Shown here: positions 38,428-64,000 of the stretch, in pieces
Numbering within the stretch: position 1 is the first letter of the stretch
How the letters are laid out: every line of letters starts with the position of its first letter
Virus record (IMG/VR): IMGVR_UViG_3300021356_000014
Location: 2,630-66,629 of that record
Reading direction: 5' to 3' (one strand)
DNA from: a virus
DNA length: 64,000 nt
Translations under genes and position numbers: made by a program
Notes under the pieces: model-generated
What the model was told of the DNA's origin: nothing
The model's input: only the letters and a program-made list of their open reading frames with translations
Database searches by the model: none

Positions 38428-38486
38428 TTTTAGTATCGACATATGTCTGATATTACTTGTTAGCTGCAAGTGCTACATAAGCGCAT

Positions 38487-39290
38487 TTAATCAGCTTTAT
38501 GCGTATCATCCGTAAAAGAAAAAAGCCCACGCTCTTTTGCCTTTTCAAGGCAATTTGGGTTAATATCACAACCAATAAAGTTTCGCTTCAAATCTTTGCA
38601 TACTTCTGCTGTTGTAAAGCTACCACTATAAAAATCTGCTACTAAATCACCTTCATTGCTACTTGCTTTTATTATTCGTTCAATTAATTTTATCGGCTTA
38701 TTTGTTGCATAAGCGATTCTGCCATATCTTGTAGAAAAGTTGTCTAGTATAAAACAGTCTGTATAATATCCAAGAGTATACTCTCCAATATTATCAAATT
38801 CATATTTCAAATTTGGGTCATATCCTCTACTTTTATCAATATATACTTTATTTTCTCTTGGGTTTTCAAAGTTATAGTTATTTGTTTTTGTGTAAAATAA
38901 AATACAATCGTGCTTTTTACTAAATTCTTTTCTACTAGCACCTCCTGTTTTGTATCCCCAAACTATCTCATTCCTAAAGTTTTTATACCCAAAAACATCA
39001 TCCATAATACACCTTATCCAATGGTTTATTCGCGTATCCATCTGCAAATAAATACTGCCTGTTGGCTTTAGTATTCGGTACATTTCTTTAATGCGAGGTA
39101 TGTAATGCTCTTCAATTATATCACGTTTAGGTTTTAAGTCTTGGTAGTCTTTAAACTTTCTACCAGTACCATAAAGTATATCACAATAAATTAAATCTAC
39201 TGTATTGTCTTGCATTTCTGCCATTAATTCAAGGTTGTCACAAATTCTCATATCTAAAAATTGCCCTCCCTCTTTTTCTTTTACTATCAT
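38487..39290 (-). CDS. DNA methyltransferase, N4C/N6A beta class
   Basis: DLIYCDILY (motif IV variant), RILKPTGSIY, FRNEIVW, KPIKLIERII, VADFYSGS (motif I). Confidence 0.88.
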   Translation of the reverse strand: MIVKEKEGGQFLDMRICDNLELMAEMQDNTVDLIYCDILYGTGRKFKDYQDLKPKRDIIEEHYIPRIKEMYRILKPTGSIYLQMDTRINHWIRCIMDDVFGYKNFRNEIVWGYKTGGASRKEFSKKHDCILFYTKTNNYNFENPRENKVYIDKSRGYDPNLKYEFDNIGEYTLGYYTDCFILDNFSTRYGRIAYATNKPIKLIERIIKASSNEGDLVADFYSGSFTTAEVCKDLKRNFIGCDINPNCLEKAKERGLFSFTDDTHKAD

Positions 39291-39381
39291 TCGTTTTTCA
39301 ATTAAAGTTTGTACTAAATAAGCCGCACCAGTCAGCTAACACGGTATAAAAAGCATTAAAACGCCTTTTTATACCCAACCG

Positions 39382-39912
39382 TTAGCTGTAATATTGGCTT
39401 AGGTCAATGCTATTTTCAGCTTCGTTACCCCAAGTATGCCAACCCTGCTTCTCCTCTCTACAAAACATTTCCAGTCTGGCAGCACTTGGATACCACTCTT
39501 TTATTAAGTTTCGTATAAAGTCAGGCTTTTTACTGTGCTTGCCTCGTTTCTCTTCCATTACACTACTTATTCTCATTGTGCTTGGCGGTGGGCTAAACTT
39601 ACCTTTTTTAGCAACCATAAGTAGTTCGTGCTGCCCTCTAAACCAATACCCCATACCAATCATCTTTTTATCCCAAATACCGTGTGTTACATACTTAAAC
39701 CCCCATGCTTCTATTACCTTCATTGCTTCGGGTAGTTTTGGAGCAGTAGCCCACATATACAACACAGCATTTTCGTTTGTCATATTCTTTACAGGCAAGT
39801 TGCAAATATCATCAATAGTCATTGTGGGGTATTGGTTTTCCACGTCTCTGCTTTTACTTTTACTAAAGTCATATCGCCACGCAGGGTCGGCATAAATTAC
39901 ATCATATTTCAT
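39382..39912 (-). CDS. MT-A70 family adenine methyltransferase
   Basis: VIYADPAW, YPTM, LYMWAT, AWGFKY, GMGYWFRGQHE, HSKKP, LEMFCR. Confidence 0.9.
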   Translation of the reverse strand: MKYDVIYADPAWRYDFSKSKSRDVENQYPTMTIDDICNLPVKNMTNENAVLYMWATAPKLPEAMKVIEAWGFKYVTHGIWDKKMIGMGYWFRGQHELLMVAKKGKFSPPPSTMRISSVMEEKRGKHSKKPDFIRNLIKEWYPSAARLEMFCREEKQGWHTWGNEAENSIDLSQYYS

Positions 39913-40040
39913 AAGTCTGTGCTTCTAAGTCGCCAATACATACAGCTAACAATGTGTATAAGTAATGGCACGTTAAAATTTGTGGCATAATTCAAATGGT
40001 CGGTGTATGTGCCACTACTCATACACTCGTCCGTTATCGG

Positions 40041-40262
40041 TCATTTCCTTTCGGCACTAACTGCTTTTCTAACTTCTCCAAGCAAAGCACCACTTCTATC
40101 TAATACTTCATCACACATCTTTGCAATACATACAGAGTTATCAGGGTATAACTCTACAAGTCTTTCAAATATCTTTTCTGGTGAAGACATCGGAAACGAA
40201 CTGATAACAACACCTATATTTAATGCCTCGTTTTGTGGTAAATTTGAATTTTCATTTTTCAT
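40041..40262 (-). CDS. small cassette protein whose N-terminus is encoded in the attC-like hairpin
   Basis: MKNENSNLPQNEALNIGVVISS reads through TATAGGTGTT-GTTATCAG. Confidence 0.6.
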   Translation of the reverse strand: MKNENSNLPQNEALNIGVVISSFPMSSPEKIFERLVELYPDNSVCIAKMCDEVLDRSGALLGEVRKAVSAERK

Positions 40263-40324
40263 TTTTAAAGTATTTAAGTTTATAAATATTCGTGTTCATT
40301 GGAACATAGCCAAACCGTTACCAA

Positions 40325-40690
40325 CTATTCATAAGCCTCAATATAATATTGTAATATCTTCTTGAAAATCTCAATCTGATTGATGTCAGTGGTATTGATA
40401 GCTATCCAAAATTTGTAGATAAGGTTTATATCATCCCTAGACTCCATTTCATTTATTTTGACAAAGCCTAGTATCGGATAGAAGCTGCGTTTGTCCTTAA
40501 AATTTGGAGTTAACGCACTAGCGTAGTGTAAGGATTTCTCTAAATCCTGCTTCCCATTTTTATTTCTATGCCTAATTAAATACTTAAAGATATTGCCTTC
40601 TTCAAATGACAGACCGTTATCTTTAATAAAAACGATGGGCTGATATTGCATTTGGTAATGGTTGCCTCCTATTTGAGTGGTAGTATCCAT
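40325..40690 (-). CDS. DUF3310-like protein (T7 gp1.7 nucleotide kinase-like)
   Basis: QIGGNHY..QPI..F.EGNIFKYLIR..KNGKQDLEKSLHY. Confidence 0.8.
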   Translation of the reverse strand: MDTTTQIGGNHYQMQYQPIVFIKDNGLSFEEGNIFKYLIRHRNKNGKQDLEKSLHYASALTPNFKDKRSFYPILGFVKINEMESRDDINLIYKFWIAINTTDINQIEIFKKILQYYIEAYE

Positions 40691-40815
40691 TTTATTTAGT
40701 TTTTTGATTCGAGTGTAAGATAATAGTTTATTTTGGAATATGCAAGAGATAAATAAAAAAAAATATTGACCGCACTTGCGGGCAATATTTTACAAGAAAC
40801 AACAACTATATAAAA

Positions 40816-41379
40816 TCAACTTATGTTTTTGGCATCTATCAAGTTATAAAATGATTTGTAAACCTTTGAAGTTAGATCAGTAGACTTAACCCCTAGCTTT
40901 TCATCATCCTCATATATAATATGATACTTCTGTGAGAACTTTTCTAGGTCGTTTATTGAGTTTTTAGGAATGAAAACAATAAACAAGAGGGCTTCGCCTA
41001 ATCTATTTTCTCTCACCCATAATAGCCCTACTTGTTTATTTACTGATGAAGCTCTCTCTGCATCTCTTTGGCACTGCTGCCAAAATCTCTCAACTTGCGC
41101 TAATATCTTTTTTATCTTACCCTCTGCTTCATCATAATGTCTTCGTAACCCTAAGTCTTTATAGTGCTTAACCTCTATTTGAAAGGGAAACTTATCTCTA
41201 AATTCTGCATTAGTGCAGACAACATCACCACATATTAAAGGCTGTATAGTTTTTGATACGTACCTTAGGCCGCCTGATGCGGGCACTCTAACAAACTCTT
41301 CACCAGTCCACTCCTCTAATATTGAACAGACTTTTCTTTCTGCATTTTGGCCTTTTGTTCTACTATTTCTTCTCTGCAT
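40816..41379 (-). CDS. PD-(D/E)XK nuclease, Holliday junction resolvase-like
   Basis: NSRTKG..ER, RVPASGG, GDV, IEVK. Confidence 0.8.
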   Translation of the reverse strand: MQRRNSRTKGQNAERKVCSILEEWTGEEFVRVPASGGLRYVSKTIQPLICGDVVCTNAEFRDKFPFQIEVKHYKDLGLRRHYDEAEGKIKKILAQVERFWQQCQRDAERASSVNKQVGLLWVRENRLGEALLFIVFIPKNSINDLEKFSQKYHIIYEDDEKLGVKSTDLTSKVYKSFYNLIDAKNIS

Positions 41380-41507
41380 AGAAAAATGTTACACCTCAAT
41401 GGATACTCAGAATACTAAGATTTAAAAGTGCGGTATTAGGTATCTTAGAGATGTAACAGTTATCTAACCATATTCGCCACTCTGACCAACGTACCATAAC
41501 CTTTCAA

Positions 41508-41661
41508 GACAAATATAAGCTATTTTCTACCTCTTGTCAAGTTTTAGGCCAAGTTTTTTTAATTTTTTTTTATTTTCATGGTGAAAAATAAAAAATATGT
41601 TAAAATATGTTAAAATTTTTAAATGGCCTTGACTTTAAGAAAAAAAAGCTGTAACTTTGCC
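41508..41661. promoter_or_regulatory. divergent promoter pair
   Basis: Minus strand TTGACA..TATATTTG (about 41540 to 41510); plus strand TTGACT-N17-TAACTTTG (41629-41659). Confidence 0.65.
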
Positions 41662-41993
41662 ATGCTTACATAGCATACAAGCAAGCAGCTTTCAACAAAT
41701 GCAACGCAAGCACTTAATCAGAATGTCTTTAAGAAAAGAATAAAAAATTCTTCTCTCACAAAGATAAATAGCCGCACCCTATCTCACAGCGAATGGCTGT
41801 TAAGGAAGGCTCCTTAAAATCCTCTAGTTAGATAATTAATAGAATATTTTTTTTTAAAAAGTCAAGGTATATTATAATAGTAAGCTAATGCTATAATGCT
41901 GACTAGAAAATAATATAATAATTCTGCCTCGCAAATTTGCATTTTAAAAAAACTATCCATAAATTGTGGCTATTACTAAATAAAAATAAAATT

Positions 41994-42332
41994 ATGATTT
42001 GGCCGCAAAATTACAGCGTATCCGAGAAAGGATTTTTTCAAGTATTAGATGACACTAGGTTTGATACTCAACCTGCTTCTATTGACATCCCTATTTATCA
42101 AATTCATAAGGAGTCAAATAGGGTAGTAAATATTTACAACCATCCTTCTGAAATAGATATCTTATCTAAATCTCAAATACGGGGTTTAGTACGATTTGAT
42201 GAGGATGTGGAAAAAGGTAAGCCAACAGAAGAAGTAGGTATGTTAGAAACTACTAAATATTTATACTTACATTATATGTTGGTAGATATAGATAATAGAA
42301 GACCATTTTGTAATACAAGAAATAACAAATAA
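41994..42332 (+). CDS. hypothetical protein
   Basis: ATG 41994 after an AT-rich leader; first gene of the replication operon. Confidence 0.6.
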   Translation: MIWPQNYSVSEKGFFQVLDDTRFDTQPASIDIPIYQIHKESNRVVNIYNHPSEIDILSKSQIRGLVRFDEDVEKGKPTEEVGMLETTKYLYLHYMLVDIDNRRPFCNTRNNK

Positions 42333-42337
42333 TAGAT

Positions 42338-43702
42338 ATGCACAAAGAATTTGAAAGAGATATTGTACGATATCTTGTACAAGAGAATCAAGGTATTGAG
42401 TATATAAAGCAGATCGACTCCGATTATTTTAACCATGAGGAGAATAAGTTTGCTTTTACCTACATGAAGCAGTATGTAGAGCAAAATAAATTTATACCTC
42501 CTAGAAACTCCTTCTACCGATTTGTTTATGAGGAGCTATCCTTGACCGAAGAGAATACAAAAATAGATGAGATTATAAAGGATATTTATAAGCCTTATGA
42601 ATCGGTTAGGGCTGAGTTATTTTTAACAGTAAAAGAGTATTTACAGAAGCAATCAATAATCAAGTTATTAGCTTCTATTGAAGATTTATCCTCTTTGACC
42701 GATCAAGAATATTCCAAGATTGCAAACAACCTATCTGCTATTGCGAAACTAGATTCTAATGAGAATTTATATCCTGCCGACAAGTTTGTTCGTAAGGATT
42801 TTACATCTTTAATGCCTTCTTATGAATTGAGTGTACCTTCTTTTTTAGATGGTTTAAATAGTTTAAGAACTACTGGCGGTTTTCAAAGTCCTGAGTTATC
42901 AGTAATTGTATCAGGAGCAAAAGGCTTTAAGACTGGTATGCTTCTTAATCTAGCGGTAGATTATATGTTGAAGGGTATGAATATAATTTATATAGATTGT
43001 GAGAATGGTGTAGATCAGATTAATGCCCGCATAAAGCAGATTATTGCAGGCAATTGCACCCATAAGGAGTTATATGATAAGGAGATACAAGAGAATTTGC
43101 GTAAGCGTATGCAGTTTTTAGATAGTAATTTCTTGACTGAAACTGGGGATATTGCTATCTGTTATGTCCCTAGTGGTAGTCATTTTGATGTAGTAGAAGC
43201 TAAGATTGAGGAAAAGATTAGGGATGGATTTAGGCCAGACATATTAATTTATGATTACATTGATAAGTTTACATCAGGCTCTCATAAGGGGCATGAAGAC
43301 AGTCAGAAGAATTATGATCGTGCGATTGTATTGAATAATAAGTTTAATACATTTAGTTTTACGGTATCTCAGACTAATCGTGATGGGTTAGAAGCTACTA
43401 CCTTAACTGCTGCAAATTTAGCGAAGGATTTTCAGAAGGTATCTAATGCTCATGCTGTATTTGCATTAAATCGTAATCGCTTTGAGTTAGATAATGGGCT
43501 TGCGCATTTAACTCCGCTTGCACAGCGGGCAGGTGAGAGATATATTCAAGGAAAGAATGAGGTATTTTTAAGGATAGATGAGTCTATACAGTTAGTAGAG
43601 GAGATTACTGACCCTGTGGAGAAGATAAGATTATATGAGGAAATATTTGATACTGTTGTAGAGCATGATATTGATTTATCAGATAATATTGATATAATAT
43701 GA
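42338..43702 (+). CDS. DnaB-like replicative helicase
   Basis: Walker A SGAKGFKT, YIDCEN, IYDYID, TVSQTNR. Confidence 0.85.
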   Translation: MHKEFERDIVRYLVQENQGIEYIKQIDSDYFNHEENKFAFTYMKQYVEQNKFIPPRNSFYRFVYEELSLTEENTKIDEIIKDIYKPYESVRAELFLTVKEYLQKQSIIKLLASIEDLSSLTDQEYSKIANNLSAIAKLDSNENLYPADKFVRKDFTSLMPSYELSVPSFLDGLNSLRTTGGFQSPELSVIVSGAKGFKTGMLLNLAVDYMLKGMNIIYIDCENGVDQINARIKQIIAGNCTHKELYDKEIQENLRKRMQFLDSNFLTETGDIAICYVPSGSHFDVVEAKIEEKIRDGFRPDILIYDYIDKFTSGSHKGHEDSQKNYDRAIVLNNKFNTFSFTVSQTNRDGLEATTLTAANLAKDFQKVSNAHAVFALNRNRFELDNGLAHLTPLAQRAGERYIQGKNEVFLRIDESIQLVEEITDPVEKIRLYEEIFDTVVEHDIDLSDNIDII

Positions 43703-44682
43703 CAACAAAGATATTTAATTTTCTTCAAGATAAGTTACAATTTCAATCGACGTGTACTGATTGGTACAGATTTAAGCATATAGAGTCTAAATCTTATTCT
43801 AAGAATTGTGCGTACAATCCTTCTATTGATACTGTTATAAACTTCTCTACAAAGTATAATTTTAAGTCTATGTCAGGCTTTAAGTATGCTATGCGTTATA
43901 TCACAAAGCAAGATTATAATAGTACAAAAGCTATAATTGCTAGATATGATGGTGTAGATTTTGATAGGGATAGAGCAGCTTTATATCGTTTAAATACTGC
44001 TAGTTATAAAGATAATTACGTAGGCAAGACTACAAGATACTTAAATAGTGTTTCTGAGAGTATTTTATCTAATTCAGATATTGCTATAGCTGCAAGGAAA
44101 TATCTTGAATCTAGGGGAATTAGTGATTATCAAGCTGATTTTTATGGGTTACGTGTGGGTATCAAGGATAAGTATCTTAACAGAGTTATTATACCTTTTT
44201 TTGAGGATAAAAAGATAGTCTATTTTAATGCTAGAGATTTTACTGGTACTAGTCGATTAAAGTATGTAAATCCTACTGAGGATGAAGCAGATTATAGTGC
44301 TAGAAGTTGTATTTATAATATAGACTGTTTAAATACTTATGATACTATCTATGTGGTTGAGGGAGCCTTTGATGCTATGATGGTAGGCAGTGATTGTATA
44401 GCTTTAGGTAGTTATACATTAAAGAGAGAGCAACTAGATAAGTTAATAAATACTTCAAAAAAACATTACATTTTTATTCCTGATTTTGAAGGTTATGAGC
44501 AATTTAAGAAGCAAGCTAAAAAATTGTGTGTATTTCATAAAGTATCAATGTTAGATACTAGAAATCTTGGGGAAGGTGACCCTTGCTTGTGGGGTAGAGA
44601 TAAGGTTTTATCTTGCCCGCAATTGTCTGCATTAGCTATCGAAAAAAAAGTTAAACAACAACAAAAATACTCATTTTTATGA
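43699..44682 (+). CDS. DNA primase (Toprim)
   Basis: YLESRGI, RVIIPF, YFNAR, KYVNP, VVEGAFDAM, PD, GDP. Confidence 0.85.
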   Translation: MTTKIFNFLQDKLQFQSTCTDWYRFKHIESKSYSKNCAYNPSIDTVINFSTKYNFKSMSGFKYAMRYITKQDYNSTKAIIARYDGVDFDRDRAALYRLNTASYKDNYVGKTTRYLNSVSESILSNSDIAIAARKYLESRGISDYQADFYGLRVGIKDKYLNRVIIPFFEDKKIVYFNARDFTGTSRLKYVNPTEDEADYSARSCIYNIDCLNTYDTIYVVEGAFDAMMVGSDCIALGSYTLKREQLDKLINTSKKHYIFIPDFEGYEQFKKQAKKLCVFHKVSMLDTRNLGEGDPCLWGRDKVLSCPQLSALAIEKKVKQQQKYSFL

Positions 44683-45413
44683 TTAGTATACAAGAAAGAG
44701 ATTTGAGGCTTTTATTAGTAAATAGAGGTTTCACAAAAAATGCTGCTGACAATCTTATAAAAGCGATAAAGAGGTCAGTAGATTCTAAGGTAACAAATGA
44801 GAGGTCAGATATTGAGAAGAGATATGGGATTAGTGCGGATACTATGGTTATCCATATGCTTTGGGAAAGATATTGTAAGTATATTAATATTGACCCTAAA
44901 TCAAGGTTAAGAGGTGACAGCCTTAGTTTAGTGAGGGATGCCTGCATTTGCTTGCAATATATTTGTATAGAATTAGGGATGGACTTAGATTTACAAACTA
45001 TAGACAGATTCTTAAAGTATGCACATTATATTAGTGAGAAGTCTGGCTATACTAGATTATCATTGAGAGCCTTATCTTATAATGTAGATAAGGTATTAGA
45101 ATTATTTAATAAAGCGAATATAGTAAAGGAATCTGGGGATTTCCCTTTGATACGTAGAATGCAGAGAAAATATGCAAGCTACTTAAAAATAAATATTGTG
45201 TCGGAGCTTGACAATGTAGAAAATATTTATTATTTTTATCAGGCCTTACAAAACATAAAAAGGCATACTTCCTATGATGAGAAGAGCAGCGAAAAAATTG
45301 TTGACCTGTTCATTCATAATAATATGTCTTACTGGAAGGATAAGGGGATAATACCTACTGCAAAGAATTTAGCTGATATAAAAGCATTATCATCACTAAG
45401 CAAATTAAAATAA
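44679..45413 (+). CDS. hypothetical protein
   Basis: 244 aa ORF with ATGA overlap. Confidence 0.65.
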   Translation: MISIQERDLRLLLVNRGFTKNAADNLIKAIKRSVDSKVTNERSDIEKRYGISADTMVIHMLWERYCKYINIDPKSRLRGDSLSLVRDACICLQYICIELGMDLDLQTIDRFLKYAHYISEKSGYTRLSLRALSYNVDKVLELFNKANIVKESGDFPLIRRMQRKYASYLKINIVSELDNVENIYYFYQALQNIKRHTSYDEKSSEKIVDLFIHNNMSYWKDKGIIPTAKNLADIKALSSLSKLK

Positions 45414-45752
45414 ATGATACAAAAGAAAATTAAGAGATACCAGTTTGATATTCTTCAAGAGAATATACATACCGATAATGATGCGCCTGTTGGGGCTAGT
45501 ATGAAGCAGATATATAGTCAAAAGCTAGAAAATTATCTGCATAGTAATGGTATGAGTATCGAAAATTTAAGGCAAGACTACTCGAAAGAGCGTATGTCAG
45601 ATCGTATGAGAGGAAGATTATTGACAGCTTATACTCAAGCAGTTCATATATATTCTCCAGTTGGAAGAGATGTGTTAGCAGAAGAAATAGGAAAGACTGA
45701 AAGCGAATTAAATTCCTTATTGAAGTCATTAAGAAACAGAAAAGTACAATGA
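45414..45752 (+). CDS. hypothetical protein with possible C-terminal HTH
   Basis: RDVLAEEIGKTESELNSLLK. Confidence 0.55.
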   Translation: MIQKKIKRYQFDILQENIHTDNDAPVGASMKQIYSQKLENYLHSNGMSIENLRQDYSKERMSDRMRGRLLTAYTQAVHIYSPVGRDVLAEEIGKTESELNSLLKSLRNRKVQ

Positions 45753-47140
45753 AAATAAAGATAGATAATATACAAGGCATATGTGATTATACACATCCTA
45801 AATTTAAGTCTTTGAGAGAAGAATATAAGGTAGCTAATCCTGATTATTGGAGAGCAATAAGGATGTCATCTTATGCTCAGAAGTATTATTACTTTATAAC
45901 TCAAAAAGGTAAGTTTAGTTTAGGGCATTTGCCCGCAATTGTGCGCTTATGCGATCAACTAAACATCTCTATTGAGATTGATGATACTAGATTGCATAAG
46001 ACTATATTTAAACCTTTCAGTAATCAGTTAGGTGAGTACACATTATATGAGCATCAATATAAAGCATTAGAGCGTTCTAGTAATACCCTGACTATTTCTG
46101 GTCAAGATATTCCATATAATCGAGGTATATATAAGATGGCTACTAATAGCGGTAAATCCTTTATTATTGCAAGCAAATGCGTGCATCTAAATGAAGGGCA
46201 TAAAGCTGTAATATTTGTACATACAGTAGACCTACTAAACCAGTTCTTTAAAACACTAAAGAATTTCGGATTAAATGTGGGCGCATTCGGGGGCAAACAT
46301 AAAAAGACTTCTGTATTTCTTGAGTGTGATGTAATCATATCTACCTACAAGTCTTATCTATCTTATCACACAAAATCTAAAGAGGTAAAAGCATTCACAA
46401 ATTCAGTAGATTTACTGATTGTAGATGAATGCCACAGAGCATCAGCAAAAGATTATGCTAGAACTATTAAACTTTTTAAAAATTCAACAAATGTTTATGG
46501 CTTTAGCGGGACTCCCTTCAAGAATGTGATATTAGCAGATAAAACGGTTCAAGGATTATTCGGAGATATCCTCATGGAGGTAAGTAATGAGGATATGCAA
46601 AAGATAGGTGTATCCTTAACTCCTATCGTAAAGATGTATGAAGTAGAATGCGATTATTTTTATTCTTATCAAGAATCTTATGAGCAGAATATCGTATTTT
46701 CTCAAGCTAGAGTAGATAAGATGGCTGAATATATTAAGCATAATACAAATAGGCAAATTATAATACCTGTTAAGCGTTTAGATCATGGTAAGTTTATATA
46801 CAATGCTCTACATAAAATTTGTGATTGTAGATTTGTGTCAGCTAACCATAAATTTAGAGATTATTTATTTGAGCAGTATAGTAAAAAGGAGTACCAAGTT
46901 TTGATTACTACGCTTGGTCAAGAAGGATTAAACTTACCTATTGACACCTTAATTTATGCTAGAGCAGAAGAGTCGATTGTAAGCCTTCTTCAATATATAG
47001 GCAGAATATTAAGGCTAGAGGGCAATACTAAAAATATTGAGATTGTAGATTTCTATGATAAAGACAATAATAACCTAGAGAAGCATAGCAAGAAAAGACT
47101 TGAAATATATAAAAAAGAAAAATTTAAAACTAATATATAA
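45749..47140 (+). CDS. superfamily 2 helicase (UvsW-like)
   Basis: ATNSGKS, DECH, SGT, EGLNLP, QYIGRILR. Confidence 0.9.
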   Translation: MKIKIDNIQGICDYTHPKFKSLREEYKVANPDYWRAIRMSSYAQKYYYFITQKGKFSLGHLPAIVRLCDQLNISIEIDDTRLHKTIFKPFSNQLGEYTLYEHQYKALERSSNTLTISGQDIPYNRGIYKMATNSGKSFIIASKCVHLNEGHKAVIFVHTVDLLNQFFKTLKNFGLNVGAFGGKHKKTSVFLECDVIISTYKSYLSYHTKSKEVKAFTNSVDLLIVDECHRASAKDYARTIKLFKNSTNVYGFSGTPFKNVILADKTVQGLFGDILMEVSNEDMQKIGVSLTPIVKMYEVECDYFYSYQESYEQNIVFSQARVDKMAEYIKHNTNRQIIIPVKRLDHGKFIYNALHKICDCRFVSANHKFRDYLFEQYSKKEYQVLITTLGQEGLNLPIDTLIYARAEESIVSLLQYIGRILRLEGNTKNIEIVDFYDKDNNNLEKHSKKRLEIYKKEKFKTNI

Positions 47141-47159
47141 AAAATAAAAACTTAATAAA

Positions 47160-47366
47160 ATGGAAAGATTACCTGAGGAAGAAGTAGTTGTTAAAATCAG
47201 CGTTTGTAATAAATGCAATGGTATTGTAAGAACTGCTGTAAAACATATGATGGACAGAAAAAGTAATAACGATTTTGCAAAGGAGGTAATGGAATATAAC
47301 CTAAATGTGATAGAACTACCTTTGCTTGAATACCGAAATCAAAACGCTGATTGGTGCAAATGTTAG
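47160..47366 (+). CDS. small Cys-containing hypothetical protein
   Basis: 68 aa, CNKC..WCKC. Confidence 0.6.
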   Translation: MERLPEEEVVVKISVCNKCNGIVRTAVKHMMDRKSNNDFAKEVMEYNLNVIELPLLEYRNQNADWCKC

Positions 47367-47427
47367 TAGGTTTATTACCTAGAACGTTTAGTATAGCCGA
47401 TGTGGTTTAAACGATAAATTTAAAAAT

Positions 47428-47664
47428 ATGAATACAGATACTAAAAGCTATGACGGCGATACATTGTTAGGCGCATGTGCCTTAGATGATAAAATATTAG
47501 CTGAAGCGTTTGTTTTATTATTTGACCCGACTTGGAAGCGTAATTGGACAAATAAAGATAAGGCAAAAGAAATGCGCTCAATTATAAACGGACAAACGCA
47601 AGTATGTAGACCTTTTTTTAATTACGCAGAATGTATAGATTACCTAAGTAGGTATTGCGCCTAA
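47428..47664 (+). CDS. small cassette protein
   Basis: Starts in the hairpin loop; stop TAA lies in the CCTAAC end box. Confidence 0.6.
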   Translation: MNTDTKSYDGDTLLGACALDDKILAEAFVLLFDPTWKRNWTNKDKAKEMRSIINGQTQVCRPFFNYAECIDYLSRYCA

Positions 47665-47684
47665 CAAGGTATATCAGAAATATT

Positions 47685-47764
47685 GAAGATATTTTTTAGG
47701 ATTTGCTCGCAATTGCAAGCAAATATTTTTAACTTGCCTTGATTATATAATTAAAAACTAAAAA
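47685..47764 (+). promoter_or_regulatory. repeated promoter/operator element, copy 1
   Basis: ATATTTTTTAGGA-TTTGCTCGCAATTGCAAGCAAA-TATTTTTAACTTGC. Confidence 0.7.
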
Positions 47765-47977
47765 ATGGGATACAAAATTAAAAACGCAGAATTATCTGAT
47801 TTCTTTGAGGTGATGGATAGCCTTGAAAAACTACTAACAGATAGGATAAGTGATTTACATCAGGTAAAAGGAGGTATGCAAGCAAGACACGCATATATAC
47901 TTTACAGGAAATTACTATGGGAAGCTAAGGATATAATGAGAGATAACATCGAAGAAATTAAAACGGAAAGTAAGTAG
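47765..47977 (+). CDS. hypothetical protein
   Basis: 70 aa ORF directly after the promoter element. Confidence 0.6.
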   Translation: MGYKIKNAELSDFFEVMDSLEKLLTDRISDLHQVKGGMQARHAYILYRKLLWEAKDIMRDNIEEIKTESK

Positions 47978-48067
47978 AAAGAAAATAAATTATGAACTGG
48001 CAAGTAGTTTTAAAAAGACCCGTAACACGGCTATTTGCTATATTTTGTGTTATAGGGCGTTATTATT

Positions 48068-48295
48068 ATGAACTTATAATATGTACAAAACGGAAGAGGC
48101 TTAAAATTTATCAAAAAAGGAATGAAGTGTAAAAATACCTACTTAGGTAAGGTTGGGATAGTAAAAGGTGGAAATAGTAGTGGTAACATTGATGTATTAT
48201 TTGAAGGGGAAAAGAAAGCAGAAAATTGCCACCCAACTTGGGCGATGAAGTATTTTGATGAAAACGATAATGTTATTGCAGAGTATGGGCAGTAA
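48068..48295 (+). pseudogene. cassette gene with an in-frame TAA at codon 4 (or a 57-aa product from ATG 48122)
   Basis: ATG AAC TTA TAA TAT GTA..GGA ATG AAG TGT..NCHPTW..TAA, all in one frame. Confidence 0.5.
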
Positions 48296-56855: not shown

Positions 56856-56930
56856 ATATTTTTTAAGATTTGCTTGCAATTGCGAGCAAATCTTTTTAAC
56901 TTGCAGTCATTAACTAATTAAAAATAAATT
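56854..56930 (+). promoter_or_regulatory. repeated promoter/operator element, copy 3
   Basis: TTTGCTTGCAATTGCGAGCAAA 56869-56890 followed by TCTTTTTAACTTGCAGTCATTAACTAATTAAAA. Confidence 0.7.
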
Positions 56931-56950
56931 AACGATAAACTTAAATTGAA

Positions 56951-57334
56951 ATGAATATAACTAATTGCGAAAAGTGCGGGTGTAAAAAGACTTGGAAGGG
57001 TGATGATATTACTTGTAGCTTCCAAGATTCTGAAAAATTTGGCGATAACTGGAAATGCGGATTGATTGGTAAGATTAGATATTTATGTGAATTAGCTATG
57101 GAGGGCAAAGACCCTAGATTACATTACCAATATTGCGAAGGCCAAAAATATGTAACAATAAAGACTGATGATATAACAGAAATGGGTCTTTGCCTTTGGG
57201 TGAGTTGGTATAAATCTCGTGGTAGAACAGAGGCTATGTGGATATTGGATGGGGATAACCAACCAAAACAGCCAAATTTTAGCGACCTAAAAGCAATTAT
57301 TGAACACTATTCTGAATTATTAGCTGAAATGTAG
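56951..57334 (+). CDS. hypothetical protein
   Basis: 127 aa, CEKC, WYKSRGRT. Confidence 0.65.
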   Translation: MNITNCEKCGCKKTWKGDDITCSFQDSEKFGDNWKCGLIGKIRYLCELAMEGKDPRLHYQYCEGQKYVTIKTDDITEMGLCLWVSWYKSRGRTEAMWILDGDNQPKQPNFSDLKAIIEHYSELLAEM

Positions 57335-57445
57335 CATTGTATATAATGTGAATGTATCTATCCCTGTACCGACCTTTTGGGAGGAATGGAGATAGATGCC
57401 CTGTTAGCCACCGTTTTTATTTTTCTAAAATTTTAAATCATTATA

Positions 57446-57913
57446 ATGTTACAAGAAGATTTCAGATTAGGGAATTACATTTTAGCTTCACAATATTTTG
57501 ATGAAGACGAAGCCCAAGACGACTTACAGGAAGATTACTCTTTTGAAAACGAATGGGATTTGTGTAAAATAACATCAATTGAAAATACTGATTTTGCTCC
57601 TTTTTCTTATGGGCTTGAATCTATCAGAAATGGGAATAAACCGAATCCAGAAATTTGGAACAGATTAGAACCTATTGAGATTAACGAAGATTATCTTATT
57701 AGATTTGGATTTGAGAAATATCCTCATGGTGGAAATGGTTTTAAGTTTGAAGGTTTTGTTGTTTATATTTTGAGAGATTCTATTGAAATAGAACACACTC
57801 CTGCAAAATTTACTGATAGGGTTCATGTTTGCAGCCATATCAAATATTTACATGAATTACAGAATCTTTATTATTTTTTAAATGGTTCTGAGTTGGTTTA
57901 TTCTCCTTGCTAA
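57446..57913 (+). CDS. hypothetical cassette protein
   Basis: FRLGNY..LEPIEINEDYLIRFGF..IKYLHELQNLYY; stop lies in GCTAAC. Confidence 0.7.
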   Translation: MLQEDFRLGNYILASQYFDEDEAQDDLQEDYSFENEWDLCKITSIENTDFAPFSYGLESIRNGNKPNPEIWNRLEPIEINEDYLIRFGFEKYPHGGNGFKFEGFVVYILRDSIEIEHTPAKFTDRVHVCSHIKYLHELQNLYYFLNGSELVYSPC

Positions 57914-58004
57914 CGTACTTGTATATGAAATGCGAAACGCAGTGTAGTTTTTTATATACTGTGTTAGCTGACGAAGTGAACTGTTAATTTTTAAATTTTA
58001 CCCG

Positions 58005-58505
58005 ATGGGAATAGACAAAATAGGAAACAAAAACAACTCTTTTGAAAGTAAGAGTATTGAGTATAGCACACCATTAGCAATAGTGAAACCCTTGATTGAG
58101 GAATTTAGTATTACCAAAGATGTTTGTGCAAGTAAGGTAAACCATAAACTACCCGATTACTGGACTAAAGAAGATGATGCCTTAACAAAAGATTGGATTG
58201 GTAATTGTTGGATGAACCCACCATTTGATAGAAACTTACAAAAATGGGTAAGGAAAGCACATAAAGAAGCTATTAAAAATGGCGGAACAAAGGTTTGCCT
58301 GATACCTGTTAGAAGTAATACAAAATGGTGGGCTGAAACGATGATAGATGCAGAAATACGGTTTATAAATGGTGAAGTAAATTTTAATGACGAACCACGA
58401 GGTTTATGGATGGGTATGTGTATTGTTGTTTTTGGCGAACAAGCGAAAGTAGGTACACATAGCATTATTGATTATAGGAAAGCAAGGGTGAAATTTAAAA
58501 ATTAA
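58005..58505 (+). CDS. phage Dam-like DNA N6-adenine methyltransferase
   Basis: YSTP, DVCAS, DDAL..W, WMNPPF, WVRKA, LIPVRSNTKWW, IRFI.G. Confidence 0.88.
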   Translation: MGIDKIGNKNNSFESKSIEYSTPLAIVKPLIEEFSITKDVCASKVNHKLPDYWTKEDDALTKDWIGNCWMNPPFDRNLQKWVRKAHKEAIKNGGTKVCLIPVRSNTKWWAETMIDAEIRFINGEVNFNDEPRGLWMGMCIVVFGEQAKVGTHSIIDYRKARVKFKN

Positions 58506-58616
58506 TTGCAGCTAACGGTTTGGCTATGCACCGTAAAGCATAGCACAATGTTTAATCTTAGCACTTACCTTAATCGCTTTATGGTGTATAGGTTGTGTTA
58601 GCAACAGTTAATTATT

Positions 58617-58850
58617 ATGACAATTTATAGAATATACTCTGATAAACAGCCTGACACTATGTTTGCAAGTAGCCTTGTGTGTAGTGTAGTGGTTGTAGCA
58701 AATAGCGAAGAAGAAGCAAAGCAGATAGTGGAAAAGAAACACGGTGATAACTTTGTATGTGATTACGAAGATGTTAAAGTAGAAGCTATTTGCGGTGATA
58801 ACCAATCAATGATTGTAAATGTGGAATACTTTAATGATAGCCACTACTAA
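58617..58850 (+). CDS. small cassette protein
   Basis: 77 aa, VVVANSEEEAKQ. Confidence 0.65.
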   Translation: MTIYRIYSDKQPDTMFASSLVCSVVVVANSEEEAKQIVEKKHGDNFVCDYEDVKVEAICGDNQSMIVNVEYFNDSHY

Positions 58851-58883
58851 TTGTTGCTAACAGGGTATATCAGAAATAAAAAA

Positions 58884-58960
58884 AAATATTTTTTAAGATT
58901 TGCTTGCAATTGCGAGCAAATCTTTTTAACTTGCAGTCATTAACTAATTAAAAACTAACT
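58884..58960 (+). promoter_or_regulatory. repeated promoter/operator element, copy 4
   Basis: About 70 bp identical to copy 3. Confidence 0.7.
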
Positions 58961-58963
58961 ATT

Positions 58964-59586: not shown

Positions 59587-60975
59587 ATGAAACAATATCT
59601 CGATCTGTTAGAAAAAATTGTACATTCAAGTACATACAAGGATGACCGAACAGGAACAGGAACTTTTAGTCTATTCGGACATCAAATGCGTTTTGATTTG
59701 AGTGAAGGATTCCCACTAGTCACTACAAAGAAGGTACATTTTAAAAGTATTGTACATGAGCTGCTGTGGTTTCTAAAAGGGGATACCAATATTAAATACC
59801 TACAAGAAAATGGTGTACGTATTTGGAATGAATGGAGACAACCATATTCTTTAAATCGAGATGTGGTTTTCATTGATCCTGTTAAAAGTGAATTTGATTC
59901 ACCATATTTAGGAGATTTTTCAACAAAAGGTCTTAATGCTGCGAAAAATTCAGTTGATGATAAACTGAGAAACCTATGGGTTAAGATGATGAAAAGATGT
60001 TATGATTCTTCATCTCATAACTTTCATCTATACGGTGCATTAGGTGTAAGAGTTTGCAAGGCATGGCATGATGTACAGGTTTTTGTTGATGATGTTAAGC
60101 AAATACCTCATTGGTATTATAAGCTTAATGACTGGTCAAACTTTGAATTGGATAAGGACTATTATGGCTCTAAACTATATTCAAAAGATACGTGTGTTTG
60201 GTTAAGAACTGATGAGAATAATCTATATACTAAAGCTACCAAACCACTCGAAATTACAGATGATATGGGTGTAAAGAAGTTTTACATTTCTTTAAATAAT
60301 GCTGCTTCTTCTCTGAATATACCCTCATCCACATTATCACGTTTTGTTAATGAAAATCCTAAAATCTTAAAGGGCAATAACAAACAGTTTGTTAAATGGT
60401 CCTTTCAAGTTGCTGAACTAAATGGCAAATTACCTAGATTTGAACTTATTAAAGAAGGTTCTTTAGGACCAGTTTACGGCGAACAGTGGCGTAATTTTAA
60501 CGGTATTAATCAACTAACACAAGTTATTGATCGGATTAAAAAAAACCCCGATTGTCGTCGTATTATTGTTTCTGCATGGAATCCAGCTGAGATTGACAAT
60601 ATGGCACTGCCCCCTTGTCACTGTCTGTTCCAGTTTGTTGTTATCGACGGTAAGCTGTCCTGTCAGCTCTACCAGCGTTCGGCTGATGTATTTCTTGGTG
60701 TACCCTTTAATATTGCTTCTTATTCACTACTAACCATGATGATGGCACAAGTTTGTGGCCTAGAAGCAGGAGAATTTGTCCATACTATTGGTGATGCTCA
60801 TTTGTATATAAATCATATGGAGCAAGCAAAGATTCAATTAAGCAGGCAAATGCGAGCATTGCCTACTGTAAGAATCAACCCAGATGTGAAAGACATCTTT
60901 TCGTTCCAATTTGAGGACTTTGAGTTAATAGATTATAATCCTCATCCACCTATAAAAGCAAAAGTCGCAGTCTGA
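59587..60975 (+). CDS. thyA: thymidylate synthase with an in-frame HNH-like insertion of about 207 aa
   Basis: DRTGTGT, FPLVTTKK, ELLWFL, LGPVYGEQWR, MALPPCH, YQRSADVFLGVPFN; insertion 59836-60456. Confidence 0.95.
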   Translation: MKQYLDLLEKIVHSSTYKDDRTGTGTFSLFGHQMRFDLSEGFPLVTTKKVHFKSIVHELLWFLKGDTNIKYLQENGVRIWNEWRQPYSLNRDVVFIDPVKSEFDSPYLGDFSTKGLNAAKNSVDDKLRNLWVKMMKRCYDSSSHNFHLYGALGVRVCKAWHDVQVFVDDVKQIPHWYYKLNDWSNFELDKDYYGSKLYSKDTCVWLRTDENNLYTKATKPLEITDDMGVKKFYISLNNAASSLNIPSSTLSRFVNENPKILKGNNKQFVKWSFQVAELNGKLPRFELIKEGSLGPVYGEQWRNFNGINQLTQVIDRIKKNPDCRRIIVSAWNPAEIDNMALPPCHCLFQFVVIDGKLSCQLYQRSADVFLGVPFNIASYSLLTMMMAQVCGLEAGEFVHTIGDAHLYINHMEQAKIQLSRQMRALPTVRINPDVKDIFSFQFEDFELIDYNPHPPIKAKVAV

Positions 60976-61123
60976 AAACTCAATTTAGAAAAACTCGATT
61001 ATGGAAAACTCAATTTAGAAAAACTCGATTATGGAAAACTCGATTATGGAAAACTCGATTATGGAAAACTCGATTTAGAAAAACTCGATTATGGAAAACT
61101 GGATTATGGAAAACTCAATATAA
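60974..61123 (+). repeat. 10 x 15-bp tandem repeat RAAAACTCGATTATG
   Basis: Units counted directly, starting at 60974. Confidence 0.95.
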
Positions 61124-61215
61124 TGAATAACTTTTTTAGAGCATTAGGGACAGCATTGTTTCTAATGCTTATTACTTTAATATTTATTTTATCAATACTA
61201 TTTATATACATATGA
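61123..61215 (+). CDS. 30-aa hydrophobic peptide
   Basis: MNNFFRALGTALFLMLITLIFILSILFIYI; ATGA overlap with 61212. Confidence 0.45.
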   Translation: MNNFFRALGTALFLMLITLIFILSILFIYI

Positions 61216-62309
61216 AATATTCAACATACTTTTTTGATTCGCTAGGATGGTTGCGAATGAATAGGTGGCCAGATGAGTATAAAACTTTTCAAGAACATAG
61301 AGAAGAGATTATAAATAATCCTGACTTGGCTTGGAAAGATTGTAATGCAGGCGATTCGCTTTACAGAACTTGCCTATATCTAGCACTAATCGGTAATAAC
61401 ACTCAGGCAGATAAGTTCATTACAGACTATTTAGAGGATATGATAAACTCAGGAGAGTATTACAGGCATCCTACCGATTCTAAAAAGCATATCTCAAGAG
61501 ATCAAATTATTGCTCTTTGCTTTTTCTTGTATACATTCAATAAAAAAGAATTACTTAAAAAGATTGCTAGGCAACACAGATTTAGATTTACACTAAAATC
61601 TAAGTACGGAACAGGGGCATATCAATCCATTGATTTCTATCTGTTTTTGCAAGCAATTGCTTGCAACTCGATGGCTAGTAACTCGATGGCCAGTAACTCG
61701 ATGGCCAGTAACTCGATGGCTAGTAACTCGATGGCTAACTCGATGGCCAGTTCAAGAGCTGCCCTGATAGGGCACTCGATAGCTGCCTCGATAGCTAGAG
61801 GCTCGATGTTTGGCTACTCCATAGGAGCATTTTTCGCTCGATGGATGTATATGATGCTCGATAGCTTAATATTTCCTTGCATGATGGCTTGGAATGTCAT
61901 AGTAAGAGGTATATTCAGAATGAAGTTTAGACCCTTAGAGCAAGCATTATCCTACATCCCATCACAACGAGATATAAATGGAGGTAAACTACTGTATCCA
62001 AAATATGCGCTATTCCTTAATAGCTTGCAACATTATATGCTATTCGGTAAATCCTCAATGTACGGCAAACTAAAAAGAAAACTGATTCATAAGTCTAATG
62101 TATATTGTAGATCATTAGTATATTACGATGGGTCGCCTACCTTGCATGATGTATTTACAACGCATACAGAAATACAAGGAGGTGTACATCTAAGATACCT
62201 CGATGGCTCTCAAAGACTAAAAAAGCTAAAAAAAGCTGAATTAGAAAATGATCTTCAATACTCATTAACTGTAAATTTAGGAATTTTATTGCTTCTGACA
62301 AAAGATTAA
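61212..62309 (+). CDS. hypothetical protein with an SNSMA repeat insert
   Basis: 365 aa; AGDS..T and YRHP..ISRDQII; 15-bp repeats at 61665-61751. Confidence 0.65.
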   Translation: MKYSTYFFDSLGWLRMNRWPDEYKTFQEHREEIINNPDLAWKDCNAGDSLYRTCLYLALIGNNTQADKFITDYLEDMINSGEYYRHPTDSKKHISRDQIIALCFFLYTFNKKELLKKIARQHRFRFTLKSKYGTGAYQSIDFYLFLQAIACNSMASNSMASNSMASNSMASNSMANSMASSRAALIGHSIAASIARGSMFGYSIGAFFARWMYMMLDSLIFPCMMAWNVIVRGIFRMKFRPLEQALSYIPSQRDINGGKLLYPKYALFLNSLQHYMLFGKSSMYGKLKRKLIHKSNVYCRSLVYYDGSPTLHDVFTTHTEIQGGVHLRYLDGSQRLKKLKKAELENDLQYSLTVNLGILLLLTKD

Positions 62310-62435: not shown

Positions 62436-62465
62436 AAACATATTATTAATCACTAAAATTTAATT

Positions 62466-62648
62466 ATGGAATGGCAAGAATTAAAACCTGATAATCTACC
62501 TAATCAAGGTAGTTGGATATTAATAACCGATGGAAATGATTGGAGAAGGGTTTTTGTAACTCCCCAATTTGAATTTGTAGAAAAGCCTGACGACAGGGTG
62601 GTATATAGTCAAGGTATAACTCACTGGTGTGAAGTTAAGCTTCCTTAA
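62466..62648 (+). CDS. DUF551-like small protein
   Basis: MEW..LP..ILITDG..ITHW..LP. Confidence 0.6.
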   Translation: MEWQELKPDNLPNQGSWILITDGNDWRRVFVTPQFEFVEKPDDRVVYSQGITHWCEVKLP

Positions 62649-62723
62649 ATGGGTGATAACGTTGAGCGTATGCGCCTGTTGGCGTGTTAATTAAAATTAC
62701 AAACTTTCAAAAACAGATATAAG

Positions 62724-62915
62724 ATGAGCAAAGAACAGAAATTGTTAGCTGCTGTTGCGACTGAAATGGAGTATGAACGCTATGAGTACAAAGGCGTTTT
62801 ATTACAGAGGCTAAACAAAGACTATATATGGTATGCGATTTACCAAAATCAAATAATAAACTGGAGCAAGTATAGCAACGACTTAGAAAGCTGGATTGAC
62901 AGCAATTGCAGCTAA
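62724..62915 (+). CDS. small cassette protein
   Basis: Starts upstream of GTTAGCTGC (62744); stop lies in CAGCTAAC. Confidence 0.6.
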   Translation: MSKEQKLLAAVATEMEYERYEYKGVLLQRLNKDYIWYAIYQNQIINWSKYSNDLESWIDSNCS

Positions 62916-62990
62916 CGGTTAGCATAAGAATAGTACGGGAATAACCCAAAAAAGATAAAACGGAGTACAAATTTTAAAACAAAAATAGCG

Positions 62991-63362
62991 ATGGAAAAGA
63001 TTTTAAAGATTGAAGAAACAACATTTGATGGTAAAGATGGATTTGTAATAACCACAGATGCGCAAGTAATTAAATTAGGCATTGACAACTGCCAATGCTG
63101 CTGTGAGAACTGGGGTTACTTTATGAGCGAAGATGACCTTAATGATTTTATAGGGGCTAATTTAATTACGGTTAAAGTAACAGATACAGCTTTAAAAACT
63201 TGGGAGGAAATAGAGGATATGTATGAAGGTGATGCAATGTTTGTGAACTTGGAAACAACTAACGGACTTTTACAATTTGTAGCATACAACGAACACAACG
63301 GATATTACGGACACGAAGCCTGTGTTGTTTCCAAACAAGTAAACGAAGAGGTTTATTTATAG
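62991..63362 (+). CDS. hypothetical phage protein (CCE / NGYY motifs)
   Basis: QCCCENWGY, YNEHNGYYGH. Confidence 0.75.
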   Translation: MEKILKIEETTFDGKDGFVITTDAQVIKLGIDNCQCCCENWGYFMSEDDLNDFIGANLITVKVTDTALKTWEEIEDMYEGDAMFVNLETTNGLLQFVAYNEHNGYYGHEACVVSKQVNEEVYL

Positions 63363-63622
63363 CCGTGCGAGGGCTTTTGATTTAAAATTCCTCAATAACG
63401 CACTACCGCTTATGCGAGCTACTAACGTAGTATTATTTTTATGCATTGTTAGCGGTATGTGTCTTATTTAAGAAAAAGAACGAAACCTTAAATAGCGCAC
63501 TGCCTTAATTAATATTTTGGCATTACCGCTAACGGTTTGGCTATGTGCTGAACGTAATAAAATGAAGTTTTGCATATAGCTTGTGTTATATGCTTTTTAT
63601 TAACTGATTAAAGGAAATAATT

Positions 63623-63877
63623 ATGAAAGTTACTATTGAGGATGCAATTAGATGTGCATTAGATGAAGCTAAAAGAAAAGAAGAAATGGGTTTATTAATA
63701 CCTTGTAACCACCCAAAACAAGAAGAAATATTTGAAAAGGGTGTTGAAGGTGTTGAAGGAGACCCTGAAACAGTATATTCAATAGCTTCATTATATGCTG
63801 ATGAAGAAAGTTCTGATGGAACTTGGTTAAGATGTATAGAAGGGGCGTTGGAAGAAGTTTATCCCACTTACTTCTAA
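63623..63877 (+). CDS. small acidic cassette protein
   Basis: 84 aa between GTTATATGC and GCATATAAC. Confidence 0.65.
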   Translation: MKVTIEDAIRCALDEAKRKEEMGLLIPCNHPKQEEIFEKGVEGVEGDPETVYSIASLYADEESSDGTWLRCIEGALEEVYPTYF

Positions 63878-64000
63878 TTGCATATAACGGCTCGGCGCTG
63901 ACGCAGTAGCTGCATATTATTTTAATACTGGAGTCTAATTTACCGTAAAAATCACAAAGTTGATATCTTATTTCCTAAAATTTACTAGCAGCTATTGCCG

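Follow-up and report, generated by a model that had tools for sequence, protein, structure and literature searches.

Integrons are the textbook gene-capture device of bacteria, and the DNA described here raises the question of whether a phage without an integrase carries its accessory genes in a device of this kind, and which recombinase would then move them. We analysed a stretch of 64,000 nucleotides, bases 2630-66629 of the 66,629-base IMG/VR virus record IMGVR_UViG_3300021356_000014, which is rated complete by CheckV; this whole stretch is referred to below as the window. An earlier reading made from the sequence alone (the sequence-only reading) had noticed units that begin with GTTA and end with the reverse complement of their own start, and had proposed that they are integron-like gene cassettes in four arrays, with no integrase in the window. 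We conclude that the four regions (array 1, 38434-40328 on the minus strand; arrays 2, 3 and 4, 47141-48330, 56941-58885 and 62466-64000 on the plus strand) are probably arrays of gene cassettes of the integron type, carried by a marine phage that has no integrase of its own. This conclusion draws on complementarity that runs cassette by cassette, on the different cassettes of a related phage, on recombinase-linked arrays in host chromosomes, on the lack of a phage recombinase and on a published assay with a site of Polaribacter phage P12002L. The lack of an integrase was borne out and extends beyond the window: a six-frame search for tyrosine recombinases with PF00589 gave no match at E ≤ 0.01 in the whole 66,629-base record.

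Complementarity of the unit ends

All eleven GTTA...TAAC units were confirmed when the sequence was read and their ends were extracted by script. Counted with the GTTA/TAAC core, the ends are complementary over 10 nt in the units 39950-39381 (minus strand), 47466-47665, 48049-48307, 58597-58861 and 63448-63533, over 9 nt in 62744-62916 and 63585-63888, and over 8 nt in 39340-38459 (minus strand) and 57963-58516. Unit 57403-57914 has only 6 nt, and unit 40208-40033 (minus strand) has 6 nt, or 8 of 9 if one mismatch is allowed. With runs of 8-10 nt in 9 of the 11 units, self-pairing extends past the 7-nt box, as it does (over 9-11 nt; PMC2727003) in attC sites, the recombination sites of integron cassettes.

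The match is specific to each unit. Over the six variable positions past the core, starts and ends of the same unit agree at 55 of 66 positions, a value that none of 100,000 permutations reached; pairs from different units agree on average at 2.6 of 6. The closest relative of the window, an IMG/VR contig of 69.7 kb (the relative), gave 43 of 60, which 3 of 100,000 permutations equalled, a figure weakened by two of the ten end coordinates that were mis-set (run 0) and kept in. For both phages pooled the match was 98 of 126, equalled by none of 100,000 permutations. We also counted GTTA plus at least 6 nt paired with a complementary TAAC end 60-1000 nt away: the window has 6 such pairs, compared with 0.83 on average (maximum 5) in 100 first-order Markov simulations, and with at least 5 nt it has 12, compared with 3.23 (maximum 9). 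The possibility that shuffled controls give comparable start/end complementarity was thus put to both kinds of control, and neither the permutations nor the simulations matched what is observed.

Within a single hairpin between two units, pairing past the core was found in only 40.5% of cells, compared with 98.7% in the core and 95.4% in the inner stem. Therefore, the long complementarity belongs to the cassette and not to the hairpin, and such cassette-wise complementarity is the mark of a site that has been split by crossover inside the AAC/GTT box. The relative's own cassettes have self-complementary ends as well, with 10-nt pairs at 19062/19327, 19433/19670 and 33487/33717.

Stop codons inside the TAAC box, reported in the sequence-only reading, are present in three units (ends 47664, 57913 and 62915), and in four other units the stop lies just ahead of the box, as TAA-TTG/ATG. 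On the other side, at least three units have an in-frame ATG in the loop of the upstream hairpin (starts of open reading frames (ORFs) at 40262, 47428 and 62724), and the relative has two more.

A hairpin family with attC-like architecture

We aligned 19 hairpins from 10 sources (the window, the relative, P12002L, four other IMG/VR contigs and three bacterial contigs) and built a covariance model, R1, from this alignment. AACG...TGTT proved invariant at all 19 aligned sites, a feature that goes beyond the sequence-only reading and includes the AAC/GTT boxes of attC. The inner stem shows compensatory changes at 5 of 8 pairs, with a covariation score that none of 500 shuffles reached, and when its partners were slid by 1-3 columns, pairing fell to 25-51%. 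This variable stem is set off by an unpaired spacer, as the L box of attC is; the spacer is unequal, one side having about 7 nt and the other 4-5 nt, and a G-T pair in the stem is conserved in 14 of the 19 sequences. Folded as a single strand, the end of one cassette, the hairpin body and the start of the next cassette form an outer stem of 8-14 bp, which includes the AAC/GTT core, and an inner stem of 8-11 bp with a loop of variable length.

In the window, R1 gave six matches with E<1e-4, three of them outside the training set, and a seventh, weak one. Every match is on the coding strand and inside an array, with none in 1-38,000, so that a model made from the hairpins finds sites in the four arrays only. 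There are 2-3 matches per array, which together with the missing PF00589 match fits the definition of clusters of attC sites lacking integrase (CALINs), two or more attC sites and no integrase close by. The matches span 64-132 nt, within the length range of attC (about 57-142 nt), except for a site at 62908-63457 that is split by a whole ORF. This split site, a site at 40197-40328 (minus strand) and, weakly, one at 47374-47477 add to those recognized before. The hairpin of only about 60 bp at 39331-39390 is real, scoring 55.8 bits. R1 found 11 sites in the relative and 6 in P12002L at E<0.01, 2 of the latter outside the training set, with scores of 42.9-69.3 bits and 22.1 for the weakest. Hairpins that a crude scan had placed inside large structural ORFs (e.g. 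10427-10482 and 16329-16398) were unsupported by R1 and were dropped as chance.

Cassettes differ between related phages

The backbones of the window and the relative are 86-89% identical, and colinearity breaks exactly at the four arrays. In place of 38430-40339 the relative has 256 bases, with homology restarting at 40340. Window positions 47149-48303 correspond to 2262 other bases, about seven cassettes of the relative's own, and homology restarts exactly at the T of TAAC (48304). The whole of array 3 (56926-58880) is absent from the relative, and 62472-63527 faces 764 other bases, with a further difference after 63628. Alignment with this relative places the differences in gene gain and loss at the four arrays, as expected if the units are cassettes.

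We also compared the window with Logan contigs of four runs, in which uncovered parts carry no meaning. In contigs from other studies, shared blocks stop at the boxes: 62741-62917 recurs with 2 differences between unlike flanks, and further contigs have loose ends at 58596 and 58861. One variant, from the probable source sample, differs only upstream of 62911.

The same sites stand next to a XerA-like recombinase in bacteria

A 21-nt motif of the sites was present in 9 IMG/VR contigs and in 29 bacterial contigs, 27 of which are titled Bacteroidota, Ignavibacteriae or Balneolaceae; several of them are chained arrays. The other two (L028 and L040) are titled as alpha- and gammaproteobacterial metagenome-assembled genomes (MAGs) and may represent binning errors or spread beyond the Fibrobacteres-Chlorobi-Bacteroidetes (FCB) group.

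In three of five array-bearing genomes examined (Maribacter flavus, M. litopenaei and a Zeaxanthinibacter MAG; contigs L024, L036 and L046, L036 being M. flavus), the array adjoins a gene for a tyrosine recombinase of 375 amino acids. In Tenacibaculum (L021) the nearest recombinase match is weak and about 9 kb from the array; the contig of the fifth genome (L042) was not mapped. The integron-integrase model TIGR02249 had no match over its cut-off in these five genomes: the 375-residue enzyme scores 212.6 bits, below the cut-off of 265, and is thus not an IntI by this measure. It passes the XerA/integron integrase model NF040815 (243.6 bits, cut-off 220). Its best solved relative is XerA (4a8e), to which it aligns without a break. 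The alignment with IntI4 (2a3v) breaks, leaving 26 residues against 68 in IntI4, at what we take to be the place of the IntI-specific insertion. Judged from these alignments, the Flavobacteriaceae recombinase is likely a XerA-like enzyme without the IntI-specific segment and not a classical IntI.

Homologues of this enzyme (E ≤ 1e-60) were found in 75 of 121 sampled Flavobacteriaceae genomes, the weaker ones possibly belonging to other Xer-like subfamilies. At 19 of the 30 best integrase loci R1 had a match within 1.5 kb, and all 19 matches lie beyond the 3' end of the integrase gene and on the opposite strand. The sequence-only reading had likened the units to integron cassettes processed by IntI tyrosine recombinases and had pointed to Bacteroidota hosts as one place to look for IntI-like enzymes. 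A dedicated tyrosine recombinase does indeed head arrays in Flavobacteriaceae; the likely partner is XerA-like, lacks the segment specific to IntI and does not come over the TIGR02249 cut-off.

Beside the M. flavus integrase (L036, 5700-8000) we observed four near-identical tandem cassettes of 451 bp with no convincing ORF, and the next cassette carries an SMR-like gene of 108 codons.

Docking-site-like layout, gene polarity and the possible cut

Among the 27 integrase loci with a complete gene, 17 have a perfect palindrome of 8-11 bp located 10-55 nt past the integrase stop codon, followed by 2-7 nt and then by GTTR. Read on the other strand, the phage array ends show the same palindrome-GTTA layout (window, 38434-38466; relative, about 34300). 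Because host integrase loci and phage array ends share this layout, we read each phage array end as a putative attI-like docking site.

The orientation of the genes differs between the two kinds of array. The ORFs of phage cassettes are on the strand modelled by R1 and face the palindrome-GTTA end in 10 of 10 cases in the window, 10 of 10 in the relative and 2 of 2 in contig L013. In the host arrays L024, L036 and L046 the direction is away from the integrase, with the longest ORFs opposite to the modelled strand (5 of 5). Phage genes do not follow the classical rule of pointing away from attI, an orientation in which the integron promoter can read them; relative to the putative docking site they appear inverted, the reverse of the host arrays.

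In classical attC sites, crossover takes place in the AAC box of the bottom strand, and a G follows that AAC (PMC2727003). Both the invariance of AACG and the host-array geometry would make the coding strand of the phage the 'bottom' strand. If so, cutting would occur in the TAAC box that follows each gene, and the hairpin would travel with the downstream gene. This would make sense of the start codons in hairpin loops, and it fits the contig variant that differs only upstream of 62911. On the same geometry, the R''/R' labels given in the sequence-only reading to the complementary ends are probably swapped, the complementarity itself being real. We also compared hairpin bodies in 131 cross-genome pairs, a set that is biased because two upstream bases are fixed in the search pattern, and the outcome was mixed: on average 3.1 of 6 positions were identical upstream and 2.3 of 6 downstream. 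In the TATGCT group of this biased set, the body is linked to the downstream cassette in all pairs.

A proposed mechanism for cassette exchange and its alternatives

Each unit consists of a gene, or of no gene, between GTTA plus 2-6 variable bases at one end and the complement of these bases plus TAAC at the other. In the mechanism that we propose, a tyrosine recombinase would cut one AAC/GTT box of the folded single-strand site and exchange strands with a second site of this kind or with the palindrome-plus-GTTA site at the array's end, and in this way cassettes would be excised, inserted or reordered. We infer the strand exchange, the box that is cut and the timing, including excision during infection. 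The same sites and docking layout occur behind the XerA-like integrase in Flavobacteriaceae and no integrase occurs in the phage, so a host enzyme is most likely: a Flavobacteriaceae recombinase would act in trans, or exchange would take place between phage and host arrays. The sequence-only reading had assigned the recombinase to the host or to another part of the phage genome; the record offers no candidate for the second, and the Flavobacteriaceae enzyme at the same sites speaks for the first. The cargo, methyltransferases and small orphan genes, would be read from phage promoters toward the docking site. Three unrelated DNA methyltransferases are carried in cassettes, probably as protection against host restriction, and with arrays stocked in this way, cassette exchange looks like a routine renewal of anti-restriction genes in these phages.

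As a more specific explanation, put forward tentatively, the phage arrays may be landing platforms with attI-like sites of their own, in a XerA-like Flavobacteriaceae system without the IntI helix, where one machinery serves separate cassette pools whose genes lie on opposite strands of the site. If this is true, host-oriented promoters would not read phage cassettes, nor phage promoters host cassettes; genes can sit within a hairpin loop; and standard integron surveys would miss the whole system.

Several observations weigh against this account of site-specific exchange. No cassette circle or recombination product was present in the Logan contigs, in which rare circles or joints would go unseen. 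A 100-bp terminator/promoter repeat flanks array 3 on both sides, and homologous recombination between its two copies would explain why the array is missing from the relative. Some contig blocks end at an ATG and a stop codon instead of at boxes, and in arrays 2-4 a clean box is missing at the first junction. Identical boxes and leaders accompany unrelated ORFs, namely in five GTTATATGC...GCATATAAC and four GTTATAGGGC...GCCCTATAAC cassettes. The MT-A70 cassette of the relative and gp53 of P12002L agree over roughly the first 68 and the last 45 nt and share nothing between. As to the cut, block ends fall at both boxes. The longer arm of the site, whose excess sits in the spacer, is on the side opposite to the classical extra-helical bases if the coding strand is the bottom strand; in attC, two or three such bases on the R''-L'' arm set strand choice. 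Finally, the candidate enzyme lacks the IntI segment that is thought, according to PMC7790495, to be needed for single-strand sites.

The frame shared with P12002L (relative 32705-33405; P12002L 37250-38100) has ends that are 93-98% identical and are 30-nt inverted repeats of each other. It encloses an MT-A70 methylase in the relative and a Mom-like protein in P12002L, two unrelated phages.

Of the alternatives to these integron-type arrays with a XerA-like partner, the one that survives best holds that they are classical CALINs: ordinary attC sites served by the host's canonical IntI, with only the location in a phage being unusual. The site P12002L_attC2 was integrated into attI1 with IntI1 (PMC9892861), and the hairpins of P12002L belong to the family described here; the sites also agree with the description of attC (PMC2727003) in their boxes, two stems and size range and in the G that follows AAC. 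We nevertheless consider this explanation unlikely. The five array-bearing genomes have no TIGR02249 match over the cut-off, and the array recombinase has 26 residues where IntI4 has 68 and runs unbroken along XerA. In addition, the phage genes have an inverted orientation with respect to the docking site, and a single complete integron in Bacteroidetes proper is given in the IntegronFinder 2.0 report.

A second alternative, which we judge improbable, dispenses with a site-specific recombinase altogether: hairpins and repeats would be conserved regulatory modules between which genes are shuffled by homologous or illegitimate recombination, as has been proposed for the promoter-stem-loop (PeSL) cassettes of T4-type phages (PMC2839356, PMC4122927). 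The position of array 3 between two terminator/promoter repeats and its absence in the relative, the conservation of hairpin and leader ahead of unrelated ORFs and the block ends at ATG or stop codons are what such modules would produce. Homologous exchange leaves unexplained, however, that each unit is complementary to its own other end, and that the same sites lie behind a dedicated recombinase in host chromosomes, where they are antisense to the genes and a role in mRNA or as promoters is unlikely. Homologous or illegitimate exchange at short conserved borders probably acts alongside site-specific recombination.

That the hairpins act in RNA, as attenuators, processing sites or terminators, and the unit ends close each message into a stem is very improbable: the modelled strand is indeed the coding strand in the phage and the G-T (G-U) pair is kept in 14 of 19 sequences, yet Rfam at gathering thresholds has 0 matches in the window, and in L024, L036 and L046 the modelled strand is antisense to the genes with the G-T pair still kept (L024), which points to folding of DNA and not of mRNA.

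Relation to known systems

Integrase-less clusters of attC cassettes in virulent phages are already known, so the kind of element described here is not new. Qi, Rajabal, Ghaly, Tetu and Gillings (Qi et al. 2023, PMC9892861) reported 17 attC clusters lacking an integrase in phages, took three virulent isolates, P12002L among them, to experiment and found that 5 of 6 tested phage sites integrate at attI1 with IntI1; divergent directions of the sites are mentioned as well. Integrons in lytic phages were reported only in 2023, from a handful of clusters with two to four sites. Their Polaribacter phage P12002L (NC_028924), with a CALIN encoding two methylases, resembles the phage of the window in being lytic and without integrase, in its AAC/GTT hairpin cassettes and in its DNA methyltransferase cargo. 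It differs in that the legend of Figure 2B in PMC9892861 names two predicted sites for P12002L, compared with four arrays and about 17 units here. What distinguishes the present case is the four arrays, their docking-site-like ends, the inverted gene polarity and the probable non-IntI host enzyme; a consistent strand rule, docking-site-like array ends and a link to a non-IntI recombinase do not appear in the accessible text of PMC9892861. In the limited literature searched, we found no printed description of the recombinase-headed arrays of Flavobacteriaceae.

With classical integrons, the system shares the two-stem folded site with AAC/GTT boxes, the G after AAC and self-pairing extending to 9-11 nt, as well as single-gene cassettes, similar sites around unrelated genes and a docking site beside the recombinase gene. 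It differs from them in that the recombinase of the host arrays lacks the IntI segment and is closest to XerA, the longer arm is on the other side and the docking site consists of a perfect palindrome and then GTTR; the phage genes face this site and would be driven by phage promoters.

The PeSL cassettes of T4-type phages are likewise small accessory genes of lytic phages in hyperplastic regions, with repeated stem-loop borders and with gain and loss among relatives, according to PMC2839356 and PMC4122927. In the window, four terminator-like repeat copies with a predicted promoter role stand before or after arrays, two of them on either side of array 3. In the same descriptions homologous recombination is thought to act on PeSL cassettes, whereas the units described here have unit-specific ends and a host recombinase counterpart.

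If the recombinase acts on these sites, this would bear on the origin of single-strand recombination from Xer-type enzymes and would explain the near-absence of integrons in surveys of Bacteroidota. The system also offers a testable route of gene flow between phage and host.

Anatomy of the four arrays

The four arrays consist of about 17 units in total and take up about one-tenth of the phage genome length. Each begins after the gene on its promoter side and ends with TAAC, a short AT-rich near-palindrome and then a terminator-like hairpin, joined in arrays 2 and 3 by the repeated 100-bp terminator/leader element.

Array 1, on the minus strand, carries an N6/N4 methylase, an MT-A70 methylase and a small ORF. 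At its end the putative attI-like layout (38434-38466) comprises a near-palindrome (38434-38452), a 6-nt spacer and the GTTAGCTG box; the terminator hairpin of the neighbouring gene (38399-38425) is just outside. The cassette 38459-39340, with ends GTTAGCTG/CAGCTAAC, contains the predicted N6/N4 DNA methyltransferase (ORF 38487-39290; PF01555, E 3.4e-43), which shares 59% amino acid identity with gp36 of P12002L. It is followed by the short attC-like hairpin, delimited by R1 at 39329-39392 (E 4.5e-12; a training sequence), and by the cassette 39381-39950 with 10-nt ends and the MT-A70 DNA methyltransferase (ORF 39382-39912; PF05063, E 4.8e-25). The attC-like hairpin at 39939-40044 (R1 41.6 bits, E 3.1e-8), outside the training set, has its nearest copy (75% alike) in a non-corresponding array of the relative. 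In the small cassette 40033-40208, the ORF is either 40041-40262, from the ATG in the hairpin loop, or 49 codons from an internal ATG. The attC-like hairpin 40197-40328 (28.7 bits, E 9.3e-5; also outside the training set) forms the promoter-side end of the array and starts directly past the stop codon of a DUF3310 gene (40325-40690).

Array 2 has small ORFs without Pfam match. It comprises the ORF 47160-47366, the degenerate hairpin 47374-47477 (R1 E=1 only), the cassette 47466-47665, an end site at 47662 followed by the terminator/promoter repeat, the ORF 47765-47977, the cassette 48049-48307 and an end site from 48304. Array 3 starts with the ORF 56951-57334 and continues with the cassette 57403-57914 (155 amino acids), a hairpin at 57903-57972, the cassette 57963-58516 with a Dam methyltransferase (PF05869, E 1.1e-21), a hairpin at 58505-58608, the cassette 58597-58861 (77 amino acids) and an end site from 58858; the two hairpins score 53.2 and 51.9 bits with R1.

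Array 4 is cut by the end of the record. After the ORF 62466-62648 and the cassette 62744-62916 comes the split hairpin 62908-63457 with a DUF7448 ORF (62991-63362) in its loop, then a unit of 86 bp without ORF (63448-63533), a hairpin at 63522-63596, and the cassette 63585-63888; R1 gives 65.7 bits in this array. Apart from DUF7448, its ORFs are small and, like those of array 2, without Pfam match. Nested inverted repeats around ORFs had been noted in the sequence-only reading at 38512-39284 and 62970-63389; only the arms of 62908-63457 were checked here. Such nested repeats and the ORF in the loop of 62908-63457 suggest that genes enter hairpin loops.

The terminator-like hairpin with its AT-rich leader is repeated after array ends, at 47666-47764 on the plus strand and in further copies at 48308-48409, 56857-56950 and 58865-58963, which also show as cross-matches in blastn. 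The relative is the sole other IMG/VR contig with the core pattern of this repeat.

The phage genome

The window encodes a large terminase, a prohead protease, a family A DNA polymerase, a primase-like protein and a helicase, as well as an SbcCD-like nuclease pair and thymidylate synthase. This set of terminase, prohead protease and replication proteins indicates, by its sequence matches, a tailed phage. Its G+C content is 30-38%; structural genes occupy 1-38 kb, and the cassette arrays lie in the replication/early half. Megablast of 38400-48400 against 50,697 phage records gave no match, and in a tblastn search with the DNA polymerase of the window all matches were below 60% identity. The virion module ends with a subtilase of 467 amino acids (36772-38175; Peptidase_S8, E 1.9e-43), after which array 1 comes next.

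The thymidylate synthase ORF (59587-60975; 462 amino acids) has its Pfam matches in two stretches. About 700 bp in its middle (about 59836-60535) are missing in the relative, and a contig from another study joins across 59789-60607; this middle part resembles a mobile insert kept in frame, for which the sequence-only reading suggests an HNH-type nuclease. Tandem repeats of about 14-15 bp, with units of the type aaaactcgattatgg, are located at 60975-61120, ahead of an ORF of 365 codons (61212-62309). Inside this ORF, at 61660-61760, there are repeats of the type aactcgatggcyagt, and the relative has a similar repeat at 35785-35929.

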